Assembly (NCBI GenBank): GCA_002256025.1
Contig: NKIB01013850.1
Span: 1 to 50,382, forward strand
Source of the DNA: Asterionella formosa
Lineage: Eukaryota
Direction of reading: 5' to 3'
Length of the DNA stretch: 50,382 nucleotides
Under the pieces are notes generated by a model. The model did no database searches, was not told the DNA's origin, and saw only the letters and a program-made list of their open reading frames with translations. A program made the position numbers and the translations under genes. Shown piece after piece: positions 11,185 through 35,548 of the stretch (position 1 is its first letter; each line of letters starts with the position of its first letter).

Positions 11185-11192
11185 CCTATGAG

Positions 11193-11621
11193 NNNNNNNN
11201 NNNNNNNNNNNNNNNNNNNNNNNNNNNNNNNNNNNNNNNNNNNNNNNNNNNNNNNNNNNNNNNNNNNNNNNNNNNNNNNNNNNNNNNNNNNNNNNNNNNN
11301 NNNNNNNNNNNNNNNNNNNNNNNNNNNNNNNNNNNNNNNNNNNNNNNNNNNNNNNNNNNNNNNNNNNNNNNNNNNNNNNNNNNNNNNNNNNNNNNNNNNN
11401 NNNNNNNNNNNNNNNNNNNNNNNNNNNNNNNNNNNNNNNNNNNNNNNNNNNNNNNNNNNNNNNNNNNNNNNNNNNNNNNNNNNNNNNNNNNNNNNNNNNN
11501 NNNNNNNNNNNNNNNNNNNNNNNNNNNNNNNNNNNNNNNNNNNNNNNNNNNNNNNNNNNNNNNNNNNNNNNNNNNNNNNNNNNNNNNNNNNNNNNNNNNN
11601 NNNNNNNNNNNNNNNNNNNNN
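11193..11621. other. Assembly gap (N run)
   Basis: Continuous Ns. Confidence 1.
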
Positions 11622-13273
11622 AGTGACCTGCAATGTCTACCAACCTATATATATACCGGTAGTTTCATTACATTCAAACGTGGCAGAACGAACATTTATT
11701 CTTGCAAATGTATCTATTTATCGTGCGAAATGTGCGATGCATGATTGTAAAATACATGAAACTGGAATCGATGAAATATGAAAACAAGTGTATTTAGACA
11801 AAGACGAATATAAGTACAGATATACATATATGTTCATGAATCCATCATACCGGTAACTCTCGTCTAATGATGCCTGGTACCTGGTACTCTGTCGAACAAA
11901 TGAATTGTTTATGTGTGTTAACATATGTGTACATGTACATATTCGTTGTACTGTACTATATGGCTAAAAGCTACTCGCACCATCACAACATTGATTTCAA
12001 TCATTCAATGATATACTGGTATACGTACACCATAAAATTGTAGATAGAGATGTCACATGTACTCTATGATTCTTCGCAACGACTCAAATGACAGACCAAC
12101 TACTGAGTCCTGTTGCCTTTATAAAACTCTACAATGTACTGGGTACTGTAGTCGTTCACAGCGGCTGGCTGGATCTCAGTCTAGACCATGCCGAAATAAC
12201 AAAAATCTCCATGAATAATGAGAACGACGCTTTGCTATTGGGTACATTTATCCATCACGACATCAAAAAATACATTCGTAAATTTATTTAAAATAAAACT
12301 TATATTGACAATGAGAATTGAAGTTGCAAGAATGTAATTTATTGAAGCACAATTCAAAAAGATGAGATTTGACACTTTCGCAGTAGCTGTGCAATGACAA
12401 TGACTAAAAATGGCATGATCAATTGAAGGGAAAGATATGAAAAAATCTATTTATCAAGTGAGAATTACCTACTGACTTTTATGAATTTGCCCAGGAAATT
12501 TTAGTGGTCACAAACCCTCCTGATGGTCAGCTAATGGCTTTTGTGCCTAAACGACCACAGAATGCTGAACAAATCGCACATTGAATATGTCTCATGTCAG
12601 TCATCACCTGGATATCATTTTTTATCACAGGATAATTACTACAGTCTGGTGGATACTGCCACTTTTGTAATGTGGGATATTTTAATTGCATACCAGTAGC
12701 AGGATTCAATATTTCCCATGCATGATATCACCAAACTATGCATACTACTGAATGAATCAATATTTGTTCATTTCAAACCTTTTCATAGGTTGAAGGTTTT
12801 CCCTTGCTGATGTGGGAGAGTGAGCGAACCGGCTCGACAACACACACCTATAGGGTTAGGGTTACATAGATTATATCAAAACTCTATCAGGAGAGAACTG
12901 GACTATCGGTAACACTTATTGAATACTTTGATGTCAACCTAGGAGGACAAGTTGCATTCAAGGATTAGGTAAAAAGTTGATATATTCAACAATTGCTATA
13001 CTCCGTGGTACTTCTAGTTAGATGCTTCACCAGTTACCTATGGGTTGTGTACGTCTGCAACGTACCCTGGTACCAGGTACCAGGTACCATGCTCTAAAAG
13101 CACTCTACACCCTACACTGGATACCGGTAAATGGCAATGAGTAGATACCGGTGTGTGAATGAAATGCCAACAAAATATTTCTCTTACGCTCATTGCTCCT
13201 CTCCTCCCGTTCGAAATAGATACCGTATAGCATTTGAAGGGTGTGTGTGGGTGGGTGTACATGTCACGCCCAA

Positions 13274-15379
13274 ATGTCATTTGTACTATCGATAGTACAC
13301 TCTGGAGCAATAAGAAGAAAGGGACTAAACGCCGCAGTAGTCATTTTATTCCGAAATATCGCAGTGATGTTTTTATTGAGTAGTATTACATCAAGTCGGG
13401 CATCGTCCGCTTGGACGAGTGGTTGTTGCAGTACTGTTGCTTTCTTGGCACCCTCGATAGGATGGAAGTATTCAAGAACACCAGGAACCTGCACTACTGT
13501 CCTTTGGCGTCAACTGGCGTCGTCCAAGGAAACTACAACTACAAATCAGGACAACATCGACAAGCGCATCTTTCGAGGGGATTGGAGATCATCCGAATTT
13601 GCAACGCATGTAGTTGCAGGAACAGATGCACTAACTATTGCTCATGCCATTTCAACTGTTTTAGAAATACCTCATAGTCATCATGTAGACAAGGACGAAT
13701 GGATGAAAACCACCAGCACTACTCCAGGGGAAGAACTTTCCGCACAGCAACTGCTACACTTGGGTGCTGTATGGTTCCTACCCAATGGTGCGAAAACAGA
13801 GTCGACCAAACCAACACGCTTGAATTTATCTAATGCAACCCAACTATTGAATGAGGGTGACTATGTTCGTATCCATCCAAATCCAAGACGATTTACAGAT
13901 GTGTACAAGTACACTTGGGATGCATTCCATCCCACTTTACTTGCAACGAATGGTAGCAGTAGTACTACTACTACTACTAACGAAAAACCTGGAGTACTGA
14001 TTGATAACAAATCACCACACTTTCTCCTCATTGACAAGCCTGCCAATGTCCCAGTACACTCCACAGTGGACAATGCAATTGAAAATGTAGTGCATTTGAT
14101 TCAAAATACCAGAAATGGGACCTACACATCTACACCACAACGATTGGATCAAAATACATCAGGATTGTTTGTTGTGGCAACATCCAAGCTATTTGCTGCC
14201 TACTATGCACTATTATTACGAAAGAAAACAATTTTTCATTTGGACAAGGAGAATGAAATGGAAGAACGAACTGTATATAAGAAATACAAATGCTTAGTCT
14301 GCTTATTACAAGATCCACTGGACACAACATGGACCATGGCATCAGCAGTGGCACAATTAAAGTCATATGATCTACTTCGACATTATTTGGAACCATCCAT
14401 ACGAGCTCCAAAGCATTACGCCAAGGAACCACCAACACCACAACCACAACCACCGAATGATGACAACACCATGAATTCACCAATGTGGGCAGAATCATTA
14501 ATGAAGATTGTTCATGTGGGTGATCCATGTGCGTTGGTTGCGACACCAGGAGAAACACTGGCATTAGATCTCTACAAAACCAAAGAGACTATGCCACCTC
14601 ACTTGGTCGGAGTCGTGGAAGTGCAAGTCGAATTGTTGACTGGACGGACACATCAAATTCGTGGACAGTTGTCTGCGGAAGGATTTCCACTTGTGGGTGA
14701 TGCCCAATATGGCGGTGCAACACCAGTATTGGGATATACAGATTTTCAACCGTCAGAACAATTGGCATTGCAATGCTGTGAATTGGAATTTTTGGATCCA
14801 GATATTGTGTTGAACAAATGGGGAGAGGAAATAATGACACCTTCTGATCGCTGGAATAAATACAGATTAGAGACCGGTTGGTGGACTCCATTTATTGAAA
14901 AGTATCATCAATCCAAAGGTAGTAGTGAAACAACCTCATCTGCTGATCTCCAACGAGCCATGGACATGGGCAAGTCGTCCATGGAAACATCCAGTATAAT
15001 GTCAGCTACTTGTATCGACACGACACTTCTTCCTCCAATGATATCATTGGCTCCAGGGAGTCACAAATACGTTCTTATCAAAGCCAAGACGAATGATGGC
15101 AAGGAATTTTGGTTTGTCAAGAGTGCAAGTCCTTGTACATGTGGTGGACCATATCATGTAGATGTTGCCAAGGATCTAGTGGATTCGTTAGAATCTCGAG
15201 GGTTCCAAGTACAAGTTACAGGTGGGGGTCGGATTATGTATGATGAATCTAAACTAAATGCCACTGTATTTGGCTTTTCGTATGGATTTGGTCGAGGAGA
15301 TCACATCAAGGCCGCAACATTGATATCAGAGAACTCTGACATTTCGGCAACATATGATCTATCTACAGATCTTTATTGA
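13274..15379 (+). CDS. RluA/RluD-family pseudouridine synthase fused to a C-terminal Janus/Ocnus (PHPT1-like phosphohistidine phosphatase) domain
   Basis: Synthase motifs IDKPANVPVH, QRLDQNTSGL (catalytic Asp) and LLTGRTHQIRGQLSAEGFPLVGDAQYG. The C-terminus has HKYVLIK, PYHVDV, GGGRI and VFGFSYGFGRGDH. Start is ATG 13274 or 13367; the N-terminus looks like an organellar presequence. Confidence 0.9.
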   Translation: MSFVLSIVHSGAIRRKGLNAAVVILFRNIAVMFLLSSITSSRASSAWTSGCCSTVAFLAPSIGWKYSRTPGTCTTVLWRQLASSKETTTTNQDNIDKRIFRGDWRSSEFATHVVAGTDALTIAHAISTVLEIPHSHHVDKDEWMKTTSTTPGEELSAQQLLHLGAVWFLPNGAKTESTKPTRLNLSNATQLLNEGDYVRIHPNPRRFTDVYKYTWDAFHPTLLATNGSSSTTTTTNEKPGVLIDNKSPHFLLIDKPANVPVHSTVDNAIENVVHLIQNTRNGTYTSTPQRLDQNTSGLFVVATSKLFAAYYALLLRKKTIFHLDKENEMEERTVYKKYKCLVCLLQDPLDTTWTMASAVAQLKSYDLLRHYLEPSIRAPKHYAKEPPTPQPQPPNDDNTMNSPMWAESLMKIVHVGDPCALVATPGETLALDLYKTKETMPPHLVGVVEVQVELLTGRTHQIRGQLSAEGFPLVGDAQYGGATPVLGYTDFQPSEQLALQCCELEFLDPDIVLNKWGEEIMTPSDRWNKYRLETGWWTPFIEKYHQSKGSSETTSSADLQRAMDMGKSSMETSSIMSATCIDTTLLPPMISLAPGSHKYVLIKAKTNDGKEFWFVKSASPCTCGGPYHVDVAKDLVDSLESRGFQVQVTGGGRIMYDESKLNATVFGFSYGFGRGDHIKAATLISENSDISATYDLSTDLY

Positions 15380-16152: not shown

Positions 16153-16659
16153 CATGAGAGATTTGATTCAAAAAATACAAGTAGAAACACTGGCAGCAAA
16201 GGACAAAGCACTGGAAACAGAACTGGCAGATATGAAGGCAAAGATGAGCTATATAGATATCTCACCCTTGGAGTCGAGGACACACATTGGTGAAAGAACC
16301 TCTCGAGTGCTGGCTAGAAAAGACATTGTGTCACCATTCATACCATAGGGTCCATATCTGCTTCCTCATTACTTCATGGTGACCCACCCAGTGCTTTCTT
16401 CGAGCTCCTCAGAAGTTTTAAACACTTTCCACAATCTTCCAACCCGGTACCGGTACGGTAGCTCCTTTTCAGGATACACCAAGTACCTGGTGCGAGGTCA
16501 TCGGGACGACGACCATTTATATAAATTTTTTAACTCTTTTATACTCGATAAAATAATATTACTAAAATTCATTTTTAAAAATTTGGGTGAACCAAAACAA
16601 CCAGTCAGCGTCCCAAAGTCCAAGATCAGTGTCCAATTCTTCCACCACCACCAACAGAC

Positions 16660-17973
16660 ATGGCAGCTCGACGACGAATGGTAGTTGCCATGTCAGGAGG
16701 AGTCGATTCCTCCGTCGCTGCCTATTTGCTTCAGCAAGACCAACGAACGTCCCTCGTCGGCGGACTGTTCATGTCCAATTGGGAGTCTCACGATGAAGAC
16801 GACAACGGCAGCAACGCCGTCAGTTGCAGTGAAGCCGACTACAGAGATGCACAACGCACTTGTGATCGCTTGCAGCTGCCCTTGCATTACGCCTCCTTTG
16901 CCAAGGACTATTGGACGCGAGTCTTTGAACCCCTCGTGGATGCCATTGCCACCGGAACGTCGACGCCCAATCCAGATGTGCTGTGCAATGCCTGCATTAA
17001 GTTCGGCGCCATGAAGGAACATGTAAGAGACGTTTTGGGAGTGGAATGGATCGCCACGGGGCACTACGCACGACTCTACCACAAAACAGGTAGGCCACCG
17101 CCGGGCATTCACGAAGACTCGTGGTTGTGGCAATGGAGTGAGTCGTCGCCACTGCTGCTGGCCGGAGTTGACCAGACCAAGGATCAATCATACTTTCTAG
17201 CTACAGTGGATGGTGCGGCGTTGGAGAATGTGGAATTTCCTCTGGGGAACTACTACAAGACAACACAAGCCCAGCCTTCCTCGCTACCGACCGTTCGACA
17301 GTTGGCAAAAAGAGTCAACCTTCCCACTGCATCCAAACGAGAATCCATGGGTATTTGTTTTGTTGGGAAGCGAAATTTTCCAGAATTTATTTCTCAATAT
17401 TTACCTGAATTGCCTCCACCTGGTGTGTTTGTGAATGTTGAAAACGGTCAAGTACTGGGTCCTCATAAGGGGTCATGGAACTATACCATTGGACAGGGGG
17501 CCAAAATTGGTGGAGCCCATAAAAAGTGGTTTGTAGTGGGTCGGACGTTGGACAATGAAGTTGTGGTGTGTCCTGGTACCCATCATGCATCTTTGTTTGC
17601 CAATCAAGTTACGATTCGAGATATGCATTGGCTGGGAAATACTGTCCCACCTCCCTTGCTACAAGATGGTGCCTTGCGTGTCTTGTGCCGACCACGACAT
17701 TTACAACCCTTGGTCCCTGGAACACTGCGATGGAAGAATAATAATAATGAACACGGTGATACCTATACTATTGACTTTGATGGTCCAGTCCGTGCGTTAA
17801 CACCAGGACAAGTCGCCGTGTTGTACATTGGAAACGTTTGTTTAGGTGGAGGTCCTATTTGGAAAGCTGGTCCAAGTTATCATGAAATGGATTTGGAATT
17901 ACCAATTTCTTTGTATTCATCAGGACATAATGATTTGTCAGTAATCCAACGAGAATTGGAGTTCATGTCATGA
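16660..17973 (+). CDS. mnmA: tRNA-specific 2-thiouridylase MnmA/TRMU (probably mitochondrial)
   Basis: AMSGGVDSSVAA PP-loop, TPNPDVLCNACIKFG, IATGHYAR, KDQSYFL, ESMGICFVGKRNF, YTIGQ and RALTPGQ. Confidence 0.96.
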   Translation: MAARRRMVVAMSGGVDSSVAAYLLQQDQRTSLVGGLFMSNWESHDEDDNGSNAVSCSEADYRDAQRTCDRLQLPLHYASFAKDYWTRVFEPLVDAIATGTSTPNPDVLCNACIKFGAMKEHVRDVLGVEWIATGHYARLYHKTGRPPPGIHEDSWLWQWSESSPLLLAGVDQTKDQSYFLATVDGAALENVEFPLGNYYKTTQAQPSSLPTVRQLAKRVNLPTASKRESMGICFVGKRNFPEFISQYLPELPPPGVFVNVENGQVLGPHKGSWNYTIGQGAKIGGAHKKWFVVGRTLDNEVVVCPGTHHASLFANQVTIRDMHWLGNTVPPPLLQDGALRVLCRPRHLQPLVPGTLRWKNNNNEHGDTYTIDFDGPVRALTPGQVAVLYIGNVCLGGGPIWKAGPSYHEMDLELPISLYSSGHNDLSVIQRELEFMS

Positions 17974-30852: not shown

Positions 30853-32340
30853 ATGCCCATTACACCACGATTCCATCTCTCCCAAACCGAGACCCATATA
30901 ACCATTGACATTCATGTTCCTCACGTTCGTGTGAATGCTCAATCGGTAGAAATTTGGATCGAATCTGAACAAGGGACGGTTCACTTTTCGTCTCCTCCCT
31001 ACTTGCTCCTCTTGACTTTTCCCGATCAGTCCTTTGCGGCGACAGAAGAGGGCGAAACTGCCAAATATGACCCAATGAGAGAGGGCGGTATGGTTACAAT
31101 GGAATTGGAAAAGGAATTTCCAAACACCTATTGGCCTAATTTAGATCTTGTAGGGCAATTTACAGTCGGACAAGGTCCAACTCCTGCTAGTCCTAGCCCT
31201 AGCACTGGACCAACAAGAGTGCTACTATCAGGACTTGATGACGACAATGACAGTCGACCACGATATGGATTTGCCAACATGTTTGTTCAGTTCTTCACTG
31301 ACCTGGTCCGTGATGGTATGGCATCCGAAATGTTACAATTAAGTACTCCTGATGCAACTCCTGAAGAACAACGGCGAATACTACGATGGACTTTCGAACA
31401 AGAATCATTCCATCCGGATCGGTATTTAGAAGATGTTGATGTTACAGAAGATTACATTTATCAATGTGCCATGGAATTGGTACCGTTTTACAGGAAGGAG
31501 GAGGGCAATGATGATGATGACATTGTGATGCAAAAGTTGACACAGGAGTTTAAGAATTTAGCAACAATACCCAAAGAGACAGAAACAAGAATCATCCATT
31601 ACGACTACTTTACAGACGCAGAATCCATGCAACTGGCATCCATTGCCTATCCCATGTTACCTGATAGCACGATCACTACCAACCACCAAACAAAGCAGCA
31701 ACTCTTGTTGGGTCTACTGGATATTTTATATGCATTTGTCTATGATCACTTGGTCACTCAGGGAGACCCCACAGTAGAGTCATCATGGAACATTTCTACC
31801 TTGAGTTCCACTCTTAGTTGGTTGGATACCTTTCATGACATGAATGACATTGTGTCCGCATCGTTGCGGCGGACCTTAATATTTCCGTACTTACGGAATT
31901 ATGACTTTGCGTTGTACTGTTGGAATCAAATCTATTTGCTTGTATCGCAAGGGCGGCGGAGTGTCATTCGAGCACTTTTAAAAGTACGGGCTATACTAGA
32001 ACAAAGTGAATTTCATTATTTGGGGAACAAACTATACATTGATCCATACCTTTCATGGCTACAGAAACAACATGAACAAGGGGGAGTAAGTGACGAGGAT
32101 CTGCAGCAATTGGTCCAACAACTACAGGTGGCATTGGATCAAGTAACAAAGTCGAGTCTGGGATTGAACTTGACCGAGTTGGAAGATGAATTTCGCGGAT
32201 ATCAAGAAGAAAATCTAAATGATGAAGCATCAGAACCTGACGATGATGAGGATGACGATGATATTGACTATGACGATGAGGACAAGCCAGATCCACCAAG
32301 AGATGGTCCTCGGAGACCGTTGATTGAAGAGATTACATAA
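30853..32340 (+). CDS. SHQ1: SHQ1, H/ACA RNP assembly chaperone
   Basis: N-terminal CS domain ITPRFHLSQ..PYLLLLTFP; YGFAN, FHPDRYLED, ESSWNISTLSSTLSW, RRTLIFPYLRN, LNLTELE and C-terminal PLIEEI. Confidence 0.92.
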   Translation: MPITPRFHLSQTETHITIDIHVPHVRVNAQSVEIWIESEQGTVHFSSPPYLLLLTFPDQSFAATEEGETAKYDPMREGGMVTMELEKEFPNTYWPNLDLVGQFTVGQGPTPASPSPSTGPTRVLLSGLDDDNDSRPRYGFANMFVQFFTDLVRDGMASEMLQLSTPDATPEEQRRILRWTFEQESFHPDRYLEDVDVTEDYIYQCAMELVPFYRKEEGNDDDDIVMQKLTQEFKNLATIPKETETRIIHYDYFTDAESMQLASIAYPMLPDSTITTNHQTKQQLLLGLLDILYAFVYDHLVTQGDPTVESSWNISTLSSTLSWLDTFHDMNDIVSASLRRTLIFPYLRNYDFALYCWNQIYLLVSQGRRSVIRALLKVRAILEQSEFHYLGNKLYIDPYLSWLQKQHEQGGVSDEDLQQLVQQLQVALDQVTKSSLGLNLTELEDEFRGYQEENLNDEASEPDDDEDDDDIDYDDEDKPDPPRDGPRRPLIEEIT

Positions 32341-32566: not shown

Positions 32567-35548
32567 ATGTGTCAGCCATCTAAAAAAATGGCGAAGAAAT
32601 TTTCTATCCCATCATTGTTGTCGCTTATATTTTTAAGTATGAAAGAAAATAATGATATGAGCGGGTCCAGAAACAACAACTTCAACCATCGTACTACCAC
32701 CGGTGGTAGAAGTATGCAATCTGTGAAACCTAACAATGATACTGTTGGTGCTGCTGCATCCAACATGAAACAAAGACAATCAATTCTTGTCCTTCATGGC
32801 AATCGTCAAACGGGTCAATTATTGTTGAATCGAATGGACAAGCTGAGAAAAAAGTTACAAAGTAGGGGATTGACACTCATTGCTCCCGATGCACCGCATT
32901 CATGTCATAACGATACTACTACTAGTAGTAGCACTAATGATGGGACAACGACAAACATCACAATTATGAGACAATGGTGGCATACTACAGCTACGGCCAC
33001 AAATGGACACCACGACGGACTAGAAGAATCATTGACAATGATACAACAGTTATGGAATACTCAAAGTCATAACTTTGTTGGAATTTTGGGATTTTCCATG
33101 GGAGCTCGACTTGCTCATTTCATAGCACTACTTCATCAACAAAATATCAACATCAACAGCAACTTTTTATTTCAAGGATTGCAATTTGTAATAATGGTGG
33201 CTGGGTATGATGCTCCATTACCATTACCCCTTTTTATACAAAGCAACGACGTGGTGGTTGCAACACCAACATTGCATGTATGGGGTGAAACCGATCAACT
33301 CATTGCACCAGCAAATAGTGAATCAGTTATGAAATATTATCAAGACCCACAATCACACATACATGATGGGGGTCATCATGTACCAATGCGTGCTGCCAAT
33401 ATACAAGCCTATCTTCATTTTATTGATACATCTTTGATGAAGGATAATAACAATAGTACTAGTGCCAGTACTTGTAATATTCATATGGACGAGGATGGAG
33501 CCATACAACTACAACTGCACCGAGCAGAAAAACCAGAAACGACATCATGTTGTGGTTTGCCAGATGACGAATGCCAAATGGCCCAACAAGACGAAATTGA
33601 AGCACTTTCTGCCATTTTTCCAGACGAATTAACTCTTCTTTCAAGTGAAAAGGACATGATCTACGAATTTCCAATTTCATACCAAATTGCAATACCATCC
33701 TCCTCGATAGGTAAATGGCCTCCTCATCCATTATCCTTGAAAGTTACATATACAATCAAGTATCCAGTTGAAAGTTTGCCACTAATGGAATTGATTCATA
33801 CCAACAATATGATGGAATTTGGATCCAATCACATGGCAGCTTGTCACAGAGTCATGCATGACGCAGCTCAAGTTGGTATGCCAAGTATATTAGCATGTGT
33901 CTATGCTATTCGAGAGTTTTTCGAATCTGGTATCATGGAAACTCTTCCTGTTGATGAAGATTTGACACCAAACGTGATCAAGGAAGAGACAAATAATCCA
34001 AATAACCCATTGCATGGTTCCATTCTATCTGCCACTGCAGAGAGAATAAGTATATGCAACCTTCAAGGGCTTCAGATTGCGCAACAAGTGCTCAAGCAGC
34101 ATACGTCTGTTTTCAACAGCCTCCCTGAAAGTATCAAGAAGGGGGGAATATGGAATTATACGATTGGCTTGGTGGGCAAACCATCTGCCGGAAAATCAAC
34201 CTTTTTCAATGCCGCAACTGCATTTGCCCGACAACGTGATGATAGGGAAAATGTTCTTGGTGGAGCAACGATGGCCCCTCATCCATTTACCACCATTGAT
34301 CCTAATATTGGATTTTGCTTTGTACCAGCTCCCCCAGGGTCATGTCCAGAAGATGACGCCGATCCTGGAACTATGATGAAGATTGGATGCACTCATGGTC
34401 GTGATCCTCAAGGGCGACGGTTGATTCCTGTCCTACTCAAGGATGTGGCTGGATTAGTACCGGGAGCATATCAAGGTCGAGGGAGAGGAAACAAGTTTCT
34501 CAATGACCTGACCGATGCCGATGTGTTGATTCATGTGGTGGATGCCAGTGGGACAGCTGACACGGAAGGCAATGATGTGGGAATGGCGGAAGCCAATGGA
34601 TCCCATCCTTTGGAGGATCTGGCTTGGATTCGTAACGAACTTATTGAATGGGTGTTTACGAATCTCATGCACAAGTGGGACACCATCAAGAGACGTGGAC
34701 GAGGCAAACTGTCGGATATGTTTAGCGGCTACAAGCAAAGTCAGACTATATTGTGGGATGTCTTGTACGCTGTTGAGAAGCATCTGGATATGAATGAACA
34801 GCGCGATCATGCATTGGATCATTTGGCGGAATGGGATGAAGGTGACGTGCGTCGACTTGTAAGTGCATTTCTTGGTGTTCGATTCCCCATGGCATTGGCA
34901 CTGAACAAAGCCGATCTGCCTCCAGCCAAGTTGTTCATTGATGATGTGCGGAATGCTCTTCCCATTCATGGTGCTCTTGTAGGTGTACCTTTATCAGCGA
35001 GAAGTGAAATGACATTTGTTCGCACACATGTGGATCCAACAATTGCAAAAGCAAGCGAATCAAGAACAATAAGTCCACCATTTGGAGTTTGGGAATGCCT
35101 CCAATCATCACTGTCTTTGCGCGAACCAGTGTTGGTATTTCCTGTGAATGATATGTTGACATATGCTCCATTGCCTGGCTTGACCAGGACAGCCATGGAA
35201 GATTCCTCCCTTCCGAATGTTGGTATGATTTCCTGCCTCCAGGCATCGGGTGGATCTGCTCCCACATTGTGGAATGATGGTGCATACGATTGCTCAAGTG
35301 CAACCTCGCAATATCTGTTGCGAGATGTGCTACTTATGAAACCTGGATCCACGGTCGAAGATGTATTTATATCACTGAAACGATTGGGTGCCCTTGGTGG
35401 CGAATTTGTTCGAGCAGAAGGCGCCAGGAGTATTGGAGAAAAGTCCAAGCTGGTTCCCAAGAATGAAGTGATTGGTAAAGCAAACCGCATTTTGAAAATC
35501 ATGACAACGAAGCGAAACAATTGGCAATCGAAACATGTTGTTTCATAA
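32567..35548 (+). CDS. Fusion of FSH1/OVCA2 serine hydrolase, RWD domain and OBG-family (Ygr210c-like) GTPase
   Basis: FSH1: ILVLHGNRQTG, GILGFSMGA, TLHVWGETD, HDGGHHVP. RWD: QQDEIEALSAIFPDE, KYPVESLP. GTPase: GLVGKPSAGKSTFFNAAT, PFTTIDPN, DVAGLVPGA..GRGNKFLNDL, NKAD and a TGS-like end. Single uninterrupted frame; the true ATG may be a later one (for example 32639 or 32765). Confidence 0.88.
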   Translation: MCQPSKKMAKKFSIPSLLSLIFLSMKENNDMSGSRNNNFNHRTTTGGRSMQSVKPNNDTVGAAASNMKQRQSILVLHGNRQTGQLLLNRMDKLRKKLQSRGLTLIAPDAPHSCHNDTTTSSSTNDGTTTNITIMRQWWHTTATATNGHHDGLEESLTMIQQLWNTQSHNFVGILGFSMGARLAHFIALLHQQNININSNFLFQGLQFVIMVAGYDAPLPLPLFIQSNDVVVATPTLHVWGETDQLIAPANSESVMKYYQDPQSHIHDGGHHVPMRAANIQAYLHFIDTSLMKDNNNSTSASTCNIHMDEDGAIQLQLHRAEKPETTSCCGLPDDECQMAQQDEIEALSAIFPDELTLLSSEKDMIYEFPISYQIAIPSSSIGKWPPHPLSLKVTYTIKYPVESLPLMELIHTNNMMEFGSNHMAACHRVMHDAAQVGMPSILACVYAIREFFESGIMETLPVDEDLTPNVIKEETNNPNNPLHGSILSATAERISICNLQGLQIAQQVLKQHTSVFNSLPESIKKGGIWNYTIGLVGKPSAGKSTFFNAATAFARQRDDRENVLGGATMAPHPFTTIDPNIGFCFVPAPPGSCPEDDADPGTMMKIGCTHGRDPQGRRLIPVLLKDVAGLVPGAYQGRGRGNKFLNDLTDADVLIHVVDASGTADTEGNDVGMAEANGSHPLEDLAWIRNELIEWVFTNLMHKWDTIKRRGRGKLSDMFSGYKQSQTILWDVLYAVEKHLDMNEQRDHALDHLAEWDEGDVRRLVSAFLGVRFPMALALNKADLPPAKLFIDDVRNALPIHGALVGVPLSARSEMTFVRTHVDPTIAKASESRTISPPFGVWECLQSSLSLREPVLVFPVNDMLTYAPLPGLTRTAMEDSSLPNVGMISCLQASGGSAPTLWNDGAYDCSSATSQYLLRDVLLMKPGSTVEDVFISLKRLGALGGEFVRAEGARSIGEKSKLVPKNEVIGKANRILKIMTTKRNNWQSKHVVS

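Follow-up and report, generated by a model that had tools for sequence, protein, structure and literature searches.

We analysed a contig of Asterionella formosa (NKIB01013850.1, positions 1 to 50,382 of the forward strand; this whole 50,382-nucleotide stretch is hereafter the window) and, precisely, a single open reading frame of 701 codons located at 13274..15379 on its forward strand and ending with TGA. The frame joins an RluA-type pseudouridine synthase to a Janus/Ocnus domain with the fold of the phosphohistidine phosphatase PHPT1, the order being presequence, S4-like region, synthase, helical linker and Ocnus domain. The fusion is one gene, real and conserved, and we infer that it is old, having arisen at or before the base of the diatoms. 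As far as we searched, it is an undescribed architecture built from two known families: a literature search, in which few subscription journals were covered, returned no paper describing a synthase-Ocnus fusion, and the databases already tag both Pfam domains on the homologues, the Seminavis protein being named after janus-B. We tentatively read the product as an organelle-imported protein with two enzymes whose chemistries are not coupled; its activities, location and substrates are those that the comparisons below suggest, and we give this reading slightly less than an even chance.

The fusion in one frame had been proposed by an initial annotation, made from the letters of the DNA, and it is borne out by the domains and by the homologues. 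No stop interrupts the frame, and Pfam places PseudoU_synth_2 (PF00849) at amino acids 249-468 (E 9.8e-15, 55.5 bits against a cut-off of 26.8) and Ocnus (PF05005) at amino acids 590-686 (E 4e-16, 59.5 bits against a curated cut-off of 23), all amino-acid numbers being those of the 701-residue window protein; a protein-family atlas lookup for it returned, as known families, only PseudoU_synth_2-type and Ocnus-type ones. In the first homologue search, in which the best 120 of 262 matches were examined, both domains were found on 114 of the 120, one being a near-copy of the window gene; three of the other six break off inside the Ocnus domain. The species-named fused homologues among the matches listed are all from diatoms, centric as well as pennate (Fistulifera, Mayamaea, Seminavis, Amphora, Cylindrotheca, Skeletonema, Thalassiosira, Cyclotella and further genera), most rows having no species name. 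Several fused homologues come from MMETSP records, which we take to be transcriptomes.

The junction was also followed in independent DNA and in contigs from RNA libraries. The Ocnus motif was found at 48 metagenome loci, 31 of which had the loop of the fused type described below; in 28 of these 31 the synthase lies in the same frame, and the other three run off the contig. Four runs from three studies, of which three are recorded as RNA and one is guessed to be, each yielded contigs that cross the domain junction without any joint within the frame; the sole indel, seen in two runs, inserts six bases and keeps the frame. Such contigs are silent on transcript starts, strand and absence, and they prove neither a single transcript nor the lack of a nested short one; that the starts of the four contigs covering the gene fall at 13171-13194, and that two RNA contig sets have no cover over 12000-13001, was not used as proof of transcription. 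The initial annotation had named, as what would overturn the fusion, a short gene starting at one of the linker methionines. The window protein has four of them, but they are not conserved, since 51 of 137 fused homologues lack any Met in the stretch that separates the domains; a nested short transcript could nevertheless exist as far as the contigs tell.

Among 181 diatom-type synthases an Ocnus match was found in 151 and none in 30. Part of the 30 resemble duplicates that were truncated, as P0129 does beside P0024 and P0130 beside P0028; the duplicates in which Ocnus is dropped include P0021/P0022 and P0122/P0126/P0129/P0130. In the pairs P0024/P0129 and P0028/P0130, possibly tandem duplicates, the two members agree in the length of their longest contig; one is fused and has a presequence, the other lacks both the Ocnus domain and the presequence pattern. 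In the window genome we looked for a synthase paralogue without Ocnus and for a membrane-anchored Ocnus protein of the fused type; only the window gene and one locus on another contig (L001) matched.

The synthase half has the fold and the catalytic residues of the RluA family. Its catalytic domain, about amino acids 211-545 (13904..14908, forward strand), was delimited by PF00849, fold match and conservation. In the AlphaFold2 model of the window protein (93-sequence alignment; mean predicted local distance difference test, pLDDT, 83.7; predicted template modelling score, pTM, 0.81) it shares the catalytic fold of E. coli RluA (2i82), RluC (1xpi) and RluD (2ist) at Z 18.7-21.4, RluA giving Z 21.4 with a root-mean-square deviation (rmsd) of 2.2 over 209 residues. 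The domain carries K255-P256, R290-L-D292, K336-x-Y338, TGRTHQIRGQ (456-465), GD..YG (475-480) and L499, and the motifs around D292, K336/Y338 and TGRTHQIR are those shared by the RluA family. D292, R290, K336, Y338 and R463 are each present in 120/120 homologues, and H262, H370 and H460 are invariant histidines. The codon of the catalytic Asp292 is GAT at 14147..14149, as had been annotated, and it lies in QRLD; the canonical motif of the family is XXHRLD in the available part of PMC8910892. The initial annotation had remarked on this substitution, which is indeed there, but it is no oddity: before R290, 112 of the 120 homologues have Q and 8 have H, and one bacterial relative, of the Bdellovibrionota, also carries QRLD. 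The motif is HQID in plants, HRLD in green algae and mostly QRLD in diatoms.

Upstream of the catalytic domain, amino acids about 108-210 (13595..13903) form an N-terminal domain that is S4-like by position. It was recognised by its conserved columns, which give the subfamily motif LG.VW..KP.RL..GDY.R.H..PRRF, and by full-length RluD (2ist), which came first in Foldseek and aligns from model residue 108, with an rmsd of 10.7 over both domains; no Pfam S4 match was obtained. The window protein differs from RluA, RluC and RluD in its long insertions, in QRLD, in the C-terminal Ocnus domain and in its scores, which are below all RluA, RluC, RluD and TruC equivalog cut-offs of NCBIfam (22-31 bits against 286-378); every other NCBIfam cut-off is likewise missed, for example that of TIGR00005 (77 against 192.7 bits). 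Because all these equivalog cut-offs are missed, the target uridine cannot be read by orthology.

The best reading of the sequences is that the synthase belongs, with nothing unusual about it, to a so far unstudied subfamily of RluA that is found in Bdellovibrionota, in green algae and, by a match made by eye, in plants as AtRLUA3 (At4g21770). In a scan of genome contigs 42 of 69 stretches were confirmed, every one in the synthase part. The best three prokaryotic matches and L011 are Bdellovibrionota proteins with the G.Y.R.H..P.R[FY] block, the DN motif after KP and no Ocnus domain. With a bacterial sequence as query against long proteins, unfused green-algal proteins (Sanguina, Pleodorina, Volvox; P0157-P0159) came out mixed with the diatom fusions. 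The blocks L..[FL]GA[VI].Y/W, G.YLR.H..P.RF, KP......T.DN..E and HY..P...AP are shared by the window protein with AtRLUA3, its maize and rice orthologues, green algae and Bdellovibrionota, the plant sequences being those in the available part of the PMC8910892 supplement; in Table 1 of that paper, in its available part, AtRLUA3 is predicted chloroplastic. As far as seen, none of these plant, algal and bacterial relatives has an Ocnus domain, the plant ones having been viewed over 400 characters with lengths of 401-474 amino acids. Around the Bdellovibrionota matches PF05005 was found in 0/4 and 0/301 genomes, yet also in 0/14 controls, so that these counts do not show its absence. In a quick, unrooted tree, in which long branches were flagged, no one-clade test was made and no donor is claimed, the Bdellovibrionota, green-algal and diatom rows stand apart from four other RluA-family rows (Shimodaira-Hasegawa-like approximate likelihood ratio test, SH-aLRT, 99), and the diatom-type rows group at support 98 with Ocnus-less rows scattered inside the group. 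A Bdellovibrionota RluA-like protein (L004:2830-3705), which is below all NCBIfam cut-offs, would represent a bacterial subfamily that has no name yet and that algae and plants have too.

The Ocnus domain comprises amino acids 585-701 (15026..15376, forward strand), according to PF05005, alignment to PDB 2ai6, Foldseek and conservation; its start, given as 15030 in the initial annotation, was moved to the codon boundary near 15026-15029. The motifs KYVLI, YH, GGGRI and GFSYGFG..DH listed there are present, and the PHPT1 fold that they had suggested, a beta-sheet with a helix on either side, was recovered. Besides the Pfam match, the domain model matches human PHPT1 (2hw4, 2nmm) with Z 15.8 and rmsd of 2.0 and 1.7, respectively, over 111-114 residues, and Foldseek gives a template modelling (TM) score of 0.87 by target length to 2nmm (E 7.5e-9). 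In the alignment to 2ai6, K598, H628, R653, S669 and H677 are the equivalents of human K21, H53, R78, S94 and H102, which are named catalytic or important in the available parts of PMC4817053 and PMC11277029. His628, the equivalent of His53, is encoded by CAT at 15155..15157, as had been read. K598, H628 and S669 are found in 151/151 fused domains, R653 and H677 in 150/151; the PHPT1-type active site is apparently intact in the fused domain.

PHPT1 is described, in the literature examined, as a small stand-alone animal enzyme that acts on channels, G-beta, ATP-citrate lyase and histones. The fused domain differs from it in being the C-terminal part of a 701-residue protein with a presequence, a trait of architecture by which the family is not defined, in its C-terminus, in which D.S..LY replaces W..DGY, and in its overall sequence, of which about 22-24% is identical. 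For the substrate-site residues listed in the available part of PMC4817053, Tyr52 is kept (Y627), Tyr93 is replaced by F668, Met95 by Y670, Ala96 by G671, Glu51 by P626 and Ala54 by V629, the last being Ala in 107/151 fused domains; most of these positions also differ from human in the stand-alone algal copies. A further difference from human PHPT1 is a four-residue, Cys-bearing insertion before the catalytic His, which gives the fused-type substrate loop S617-A-S-P-x-x-C623-G-G-P-Y-H628 (15122..15157), identified by alignment and modelled with a short helix at 620-623. Its C-x-G-x-[YF]H pattern is found in 130/151 fused domains and in 0/60 stand-alone proteins and 0/4 other fusions.

The window genome has exactly two Ocnus matches, the window gene and a stand-alone frame of 147 amino acids on the contig L001, to which the fused domain is 42% identical over 100 amino acids. 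The stand-alone gene (L001:1471-1920, reverse strand) has no in-frame presequence, an upstream exon being possible. It and its kin (for instance P0293, from Stephanopyxis turris) share with the fused domain the active-site residues and a TT..D motif upstream, but they lack the insertion and the synthase and form a separate clade. The fused-domain search was made on cluster representatives, of which the best 150 of 356 matches were examined, and a quick tree was built from 121 domains (40 of the 151 fused rows and 81 others); in it the fused-type domains are one clade, with SH-aLRT 99, apart from L001 and kin. Six short proteins without a synthase (P0233, P0234, P0237, P0241, P0242, P0245) nest in the fused clade, mostly behind a hydrophobic stretch; in them GYS[NH][RQ]YG replaces GFSYGFG, and they are possibly membrane-anchored offshoots of the fusion.

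The linker between the two halves, amino acids 546-584 (14909..15025), had been annotated as Ser/Thr-rich, and 40% of it is Ser/Thr; it is, however, no featureless spacer, since helices are modelled at 538-547 and 556-574 and it contains a partly conserved TT..D motif (14930-14947). In the fused proteins its median length is 39 amino acids (10th-90th percentile 31-48). Within 75 amino acids upstream of Ocnus, TT..D is present in 63/151 fused and 40/52 stand-alone proteins, compared with 45/685 control windows, and it is similar to TTxxED, the motif at the N-terminus of stand-alone algal Ocnus proteins. A duplicate of an algal PHPT1 gene was probably captured whole, its N-terminal helix included.

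To judge the packing, we computed the ceiling that pTM would reach with an unplaced Ocnus domain and compared it with the pTM of the model. The window protein has a pTM of 0.81 against a ceiling of 0.76-0.78, and the Seminavis orthologue, modelled without presequence, 0.86 against 0.82-0.84, all other residues being taken as perfect; the two models share most alignment rows and are not independent. These values point to a defined placement of the Ocnus domain on the synthase in the models. A two-chain prediction with synthase amino acids 103-548 and Ocnus amino acids 583-701 scored 0.00 twice; it was run without alignment and without controls and counts neither way. Mutual information, computed over 122 aligned sequences (effective number 61), was uninformative, as it singled out variable loop positions only.

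The N-terminus looks like a bipartite organellar presequence. A signal-peptide-like stretch (13274..13414), hydrophobic over amino acids about 20-39, ends with ASSA-W (amino acids 43-47; W47 codon 13412-13414), a second Met lies at amino acid 32 (13367), and amino acids 48-101 (13415..13576) are a transit-peptide-like region of low confidence, pLDDT being below 50 for amino acids 37-101. The diatom plastid rule, as used by ASAFind, is a signal peptide, then F/W/Y/L at +1, then a transit peptide. We used a crude home-made script on 73 full-length fused proteins. It found a hydrophobic stretch with a small residue and F/W behind it in 35/73 (shuffled N-termini 7.5%, internal windows 0.7%) and R-x-[FL]-S in 34/73 (14% and 3.6%, respectively); 7 of 24 long stand-alone Ocnus proteins also match the presequence pattern. 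By this heuristic the ASSA-W presequence proposed in the initial annotation is of organellar type. The available part of PMC4494062 describes diatom aminoacyl-tRNA synthetases that are imported into both plastid and mitochondrion through alternative starts or ambiguous peptides. Plastids or mitochondria are the probable destination of the window protein; its N-terminus fits import into the plastid, possibly with dual plastid and mitochondrial import.

Ocnus domains are also joined to other enzymes, as seen in a partial census in which 29 of the 150 examined Ocnus matches were scanned against Pfam. In P0288 and P0297, TrmB (the transfer RNA N7-methylguanosine-46, m7G46, methyltransferase) is joined to Ocnus through a TT..ED linker; P0288 passes the TIGR00091 cut-off, is in one frame in L046 (L046:3001-4275) and has a presequence-like start. 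In P0335/P0376 the partner is 5-formyl-tetrahydrofolate cyclo-ligase, and in P0374 of Tetraparma gracilis (GMI36096.1) it is another N-terminal domain. The latter looked like a glycosyltransferase-8 tail, a candidate that we dropped because it had no match in Pfam, NCBIfam or the PDB. P0333 and P0354, together with P0374, have Ocnus behind an unassigned domain in Parmales. The TrmB fusions and P0374 resemble the window protein in having an enzyme, a TT..ED linker and a C-terminal Ocnus domain with intact residues, and they differ from it in the partner and in the stand-alone-type loop. All the TrmB, cyclo-ligase and Tetraparma fusions have this loop and fall outside the synthase-fused clade of the quick tree, which suggests that the TrmB and Tetraparma fusions have a separate origin; since the TrmB fusions group with P0333 (support 92), a Parmales origin may be proposed for them. 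Of the four kinds of partner, two modify RNA, which is suggestive, and two do not. The TrmB-like frames of the window genome have no Ocnus domain, its Ocnus matches being at the two places named above.

Taken as an uncoupled pair of enzymes, the protein would be encoded in the nucleus and imported, with two active sites, into the plastid and probably also into the mitochondrion. The synthase would flip a uridine of organellar ribosomal or transfer RNA and isomerise it through Asp292. The Ocnus part would be the duplicated algal PHPT1 gene, docked on the synthase; by the mechanism of PHPT1, with His628 activating the water, it would hydrolyse a phosphorus-nitrogen (P-N) bond, that of a phosphohistidine or phospholysine of an organellar protein, and the remodelled loop by His628 would give it a new substrate preference. 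Through the fusion the phosphatase would be imported, co-expressed and anchored close to organellar ribosomes, with no chemical coupling between the reactions. We counted for uncoupled reactions the synthases without Ocnus in Bdellovibrionota, in green algae and in diatom rows nested among the fused ones, and the Ocnus domains behind non-RNA enzymes (5-formyl-tetrahydrofolate cyclo-ligase and the Tetraparma partner); the same observations give no support to the link between RNA modification and His dephosphorylation offered in the initial annotation. For two working sites we counted the conservation of the fused Ocnus domain, which matches that of the synthase core (mean pairwise identities of 0.58 and 0.57, respectively, compared with 0.18 for the linker).

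Several points weigh against this preferred reading. The home-made targeting pattern failed in 38 of the 73 full-length fused proteins, and introns may have cut short the gene calls of many of the 30 diatom-type synthases scored as unfused. Docking is argued indirectly, from pTM only, and with a small margin for the window protein. Owing to the change of Glu51 to Pro and the rebuilt loop before His628, peptide phosphohistidine is perhaps no longer a substrate. Moreover, a coupled role on RNA would account at least equally well for the separate TrmB fusion and for the fixed packing that is predicted.

In that coupled role, the Ocnus pocket, docked on the synthase, would be redirected to RNA or nucleotides. 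On the transfer or ribosomal RNA handled by the synthase it would bind or remove either a P-N nucleotide adduct or a phosphate at the end, 3'- or 2',3'-cyclic, making the protein a two-step enzyme of RNA maturation or repair. We consider this a possible but unlikely explanation, and we hold just as doubtful the wider proposal that the PHPT1 fold was recruited at least twice, in diatoms and sister algae, to organellar RNA-modifying enzymes (RluA-type and TrmB) as an RNA- or nucleotide-directed phosphatase, which would heal the ends of RNA or take off P-N nucleotide adducts next to the modified site. The RNA reading gains from the independence of the TrmB fusion (P0288), whose Ocnus domain is outside the synthase-fused clade, from the in-frame synthase at all metagenome loci with the insertion motif that do not stop at a contig end (28/31), from the rebuilding of the loop beside the catalytic His and the predicted fixed placement, and from the binding of free phosphate by PHPT1 in the His53 pocket (PMC11277029, available part). 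The same part of that paper, however, mentions no RNA activity of PHPT1, half of the partner types are not RNA enzymes, and the TrmB fusions, of which only two were found, lack the insertion (0/4 other fusions). In addition, the TrmB-like frames of the window genome, and synthase orthologues elsewhere, do without the domain.

Less probable still is a regulatory coupling, in which Ocnus would remove or read phosphohistidine on the synthase or on a ribosome-biogenesis partner and so tie organellar pseudouridylation to nucleotide or phosphate status. A plant plastid synthase mutant, svr1, is hyposensitive to phosphorus deprivation according to the available part of PMC8910892, but SVR1 is of RsuA type. 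The intact active site, the predicted packing and the invariant synthase histidines would agree with such a coupling; of these histidines, however, H460 is part of the general motif III common to unfused enzymes, and no phosphohistidine on any synthase was met in the literature examined. Moreover, pseudouridine formation requires no phosphate chemistry.

We also regard as improbable a frozen accident, that is, a neutral read-through fusion between neighbouring genes in a compact genome, with each enzyme useful and with neither packing nor benefit of linkage. The several unrelated partners of Ocnus, the duplicates that drop it and the low identity of the linker are what such an accident would leave, but the fusion was kept in centric and pennate diatoms, with an insertion and a C-terminus specific to the subfamily, the linker length is centred on 39 amino acids, and pTM is above the unplaced ceiling in two models. 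It is very unlikely that one domain is catalytically dead and the protein a scaffold, for instance an assembly factor of the mitoribosome or of the plastid ribosome: chains of trypanosomatid mitoribosome assembly intermediates are among the top Foldseek matches and QRLD departs from HRLD, but the five synthase residues and H628 are present throughout (120/120 and 151/151, respectively), and the Q/H position varies in the family. Finally, that two genes are in frame by chance, or by an assembly or annotation error, which the four linker methionines could have suggested, is refuted by the 114/120 fused homologues and the same-frame metagenome loci, and is further opposed by the RNA-library contigs that bridge the junction and by the homologues without a linker Met.

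As for the surroundings of the gene, a MnmA-type enzyme of tRNA modification (Pfam tRNA_Me_trans with M and C domains) lies 1.3 kb downstream on the same strand, at 16660-17973 of the window. A homologue of SHQ1, the assembly factor of H/ACA ribonucleoproteins (recognised by Pfam), is at 30853-32340 on the forward strand, probably by coincidence, and FSH1 hydrolase, RWD and GTPase domains are found in one frame at 32567-35548, also on the forward strand. Upstream of the fusion gene, a run of N (assembly gap) at about 11190-11630 lies inside a leucine-rich-repeat gene region. Short GGTACC-rich repeats occur at 13058-13089 and 16440-16500, both intergenic, and also upstream of the stand-alone Ocnus gene on L001; loose matches of the motif on other contigs make it possibly a dispersed repeat of promoter regions.

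Point alleles of the two active sites, D292A and H628A, would separate the hypotheses, and tools for knockout and green fluorescent protein tagging exist for diatoms. If the activities are unlinked, the gene would be a neat example, though a modest one, of a fusion in which one enzyme hitch-hikes on another. If the Ocnus domain is instead an RNA-directed phosphatase, the Janus/Ocnus family would gain its first RNA role, and protein phosphohistidine would be put in question as its only or original substrate. The fusion would give a direct handle on what removes phosphohistidine in algal plastids and mitochondria, and on non-protein substrates of the PHPT1 fold.

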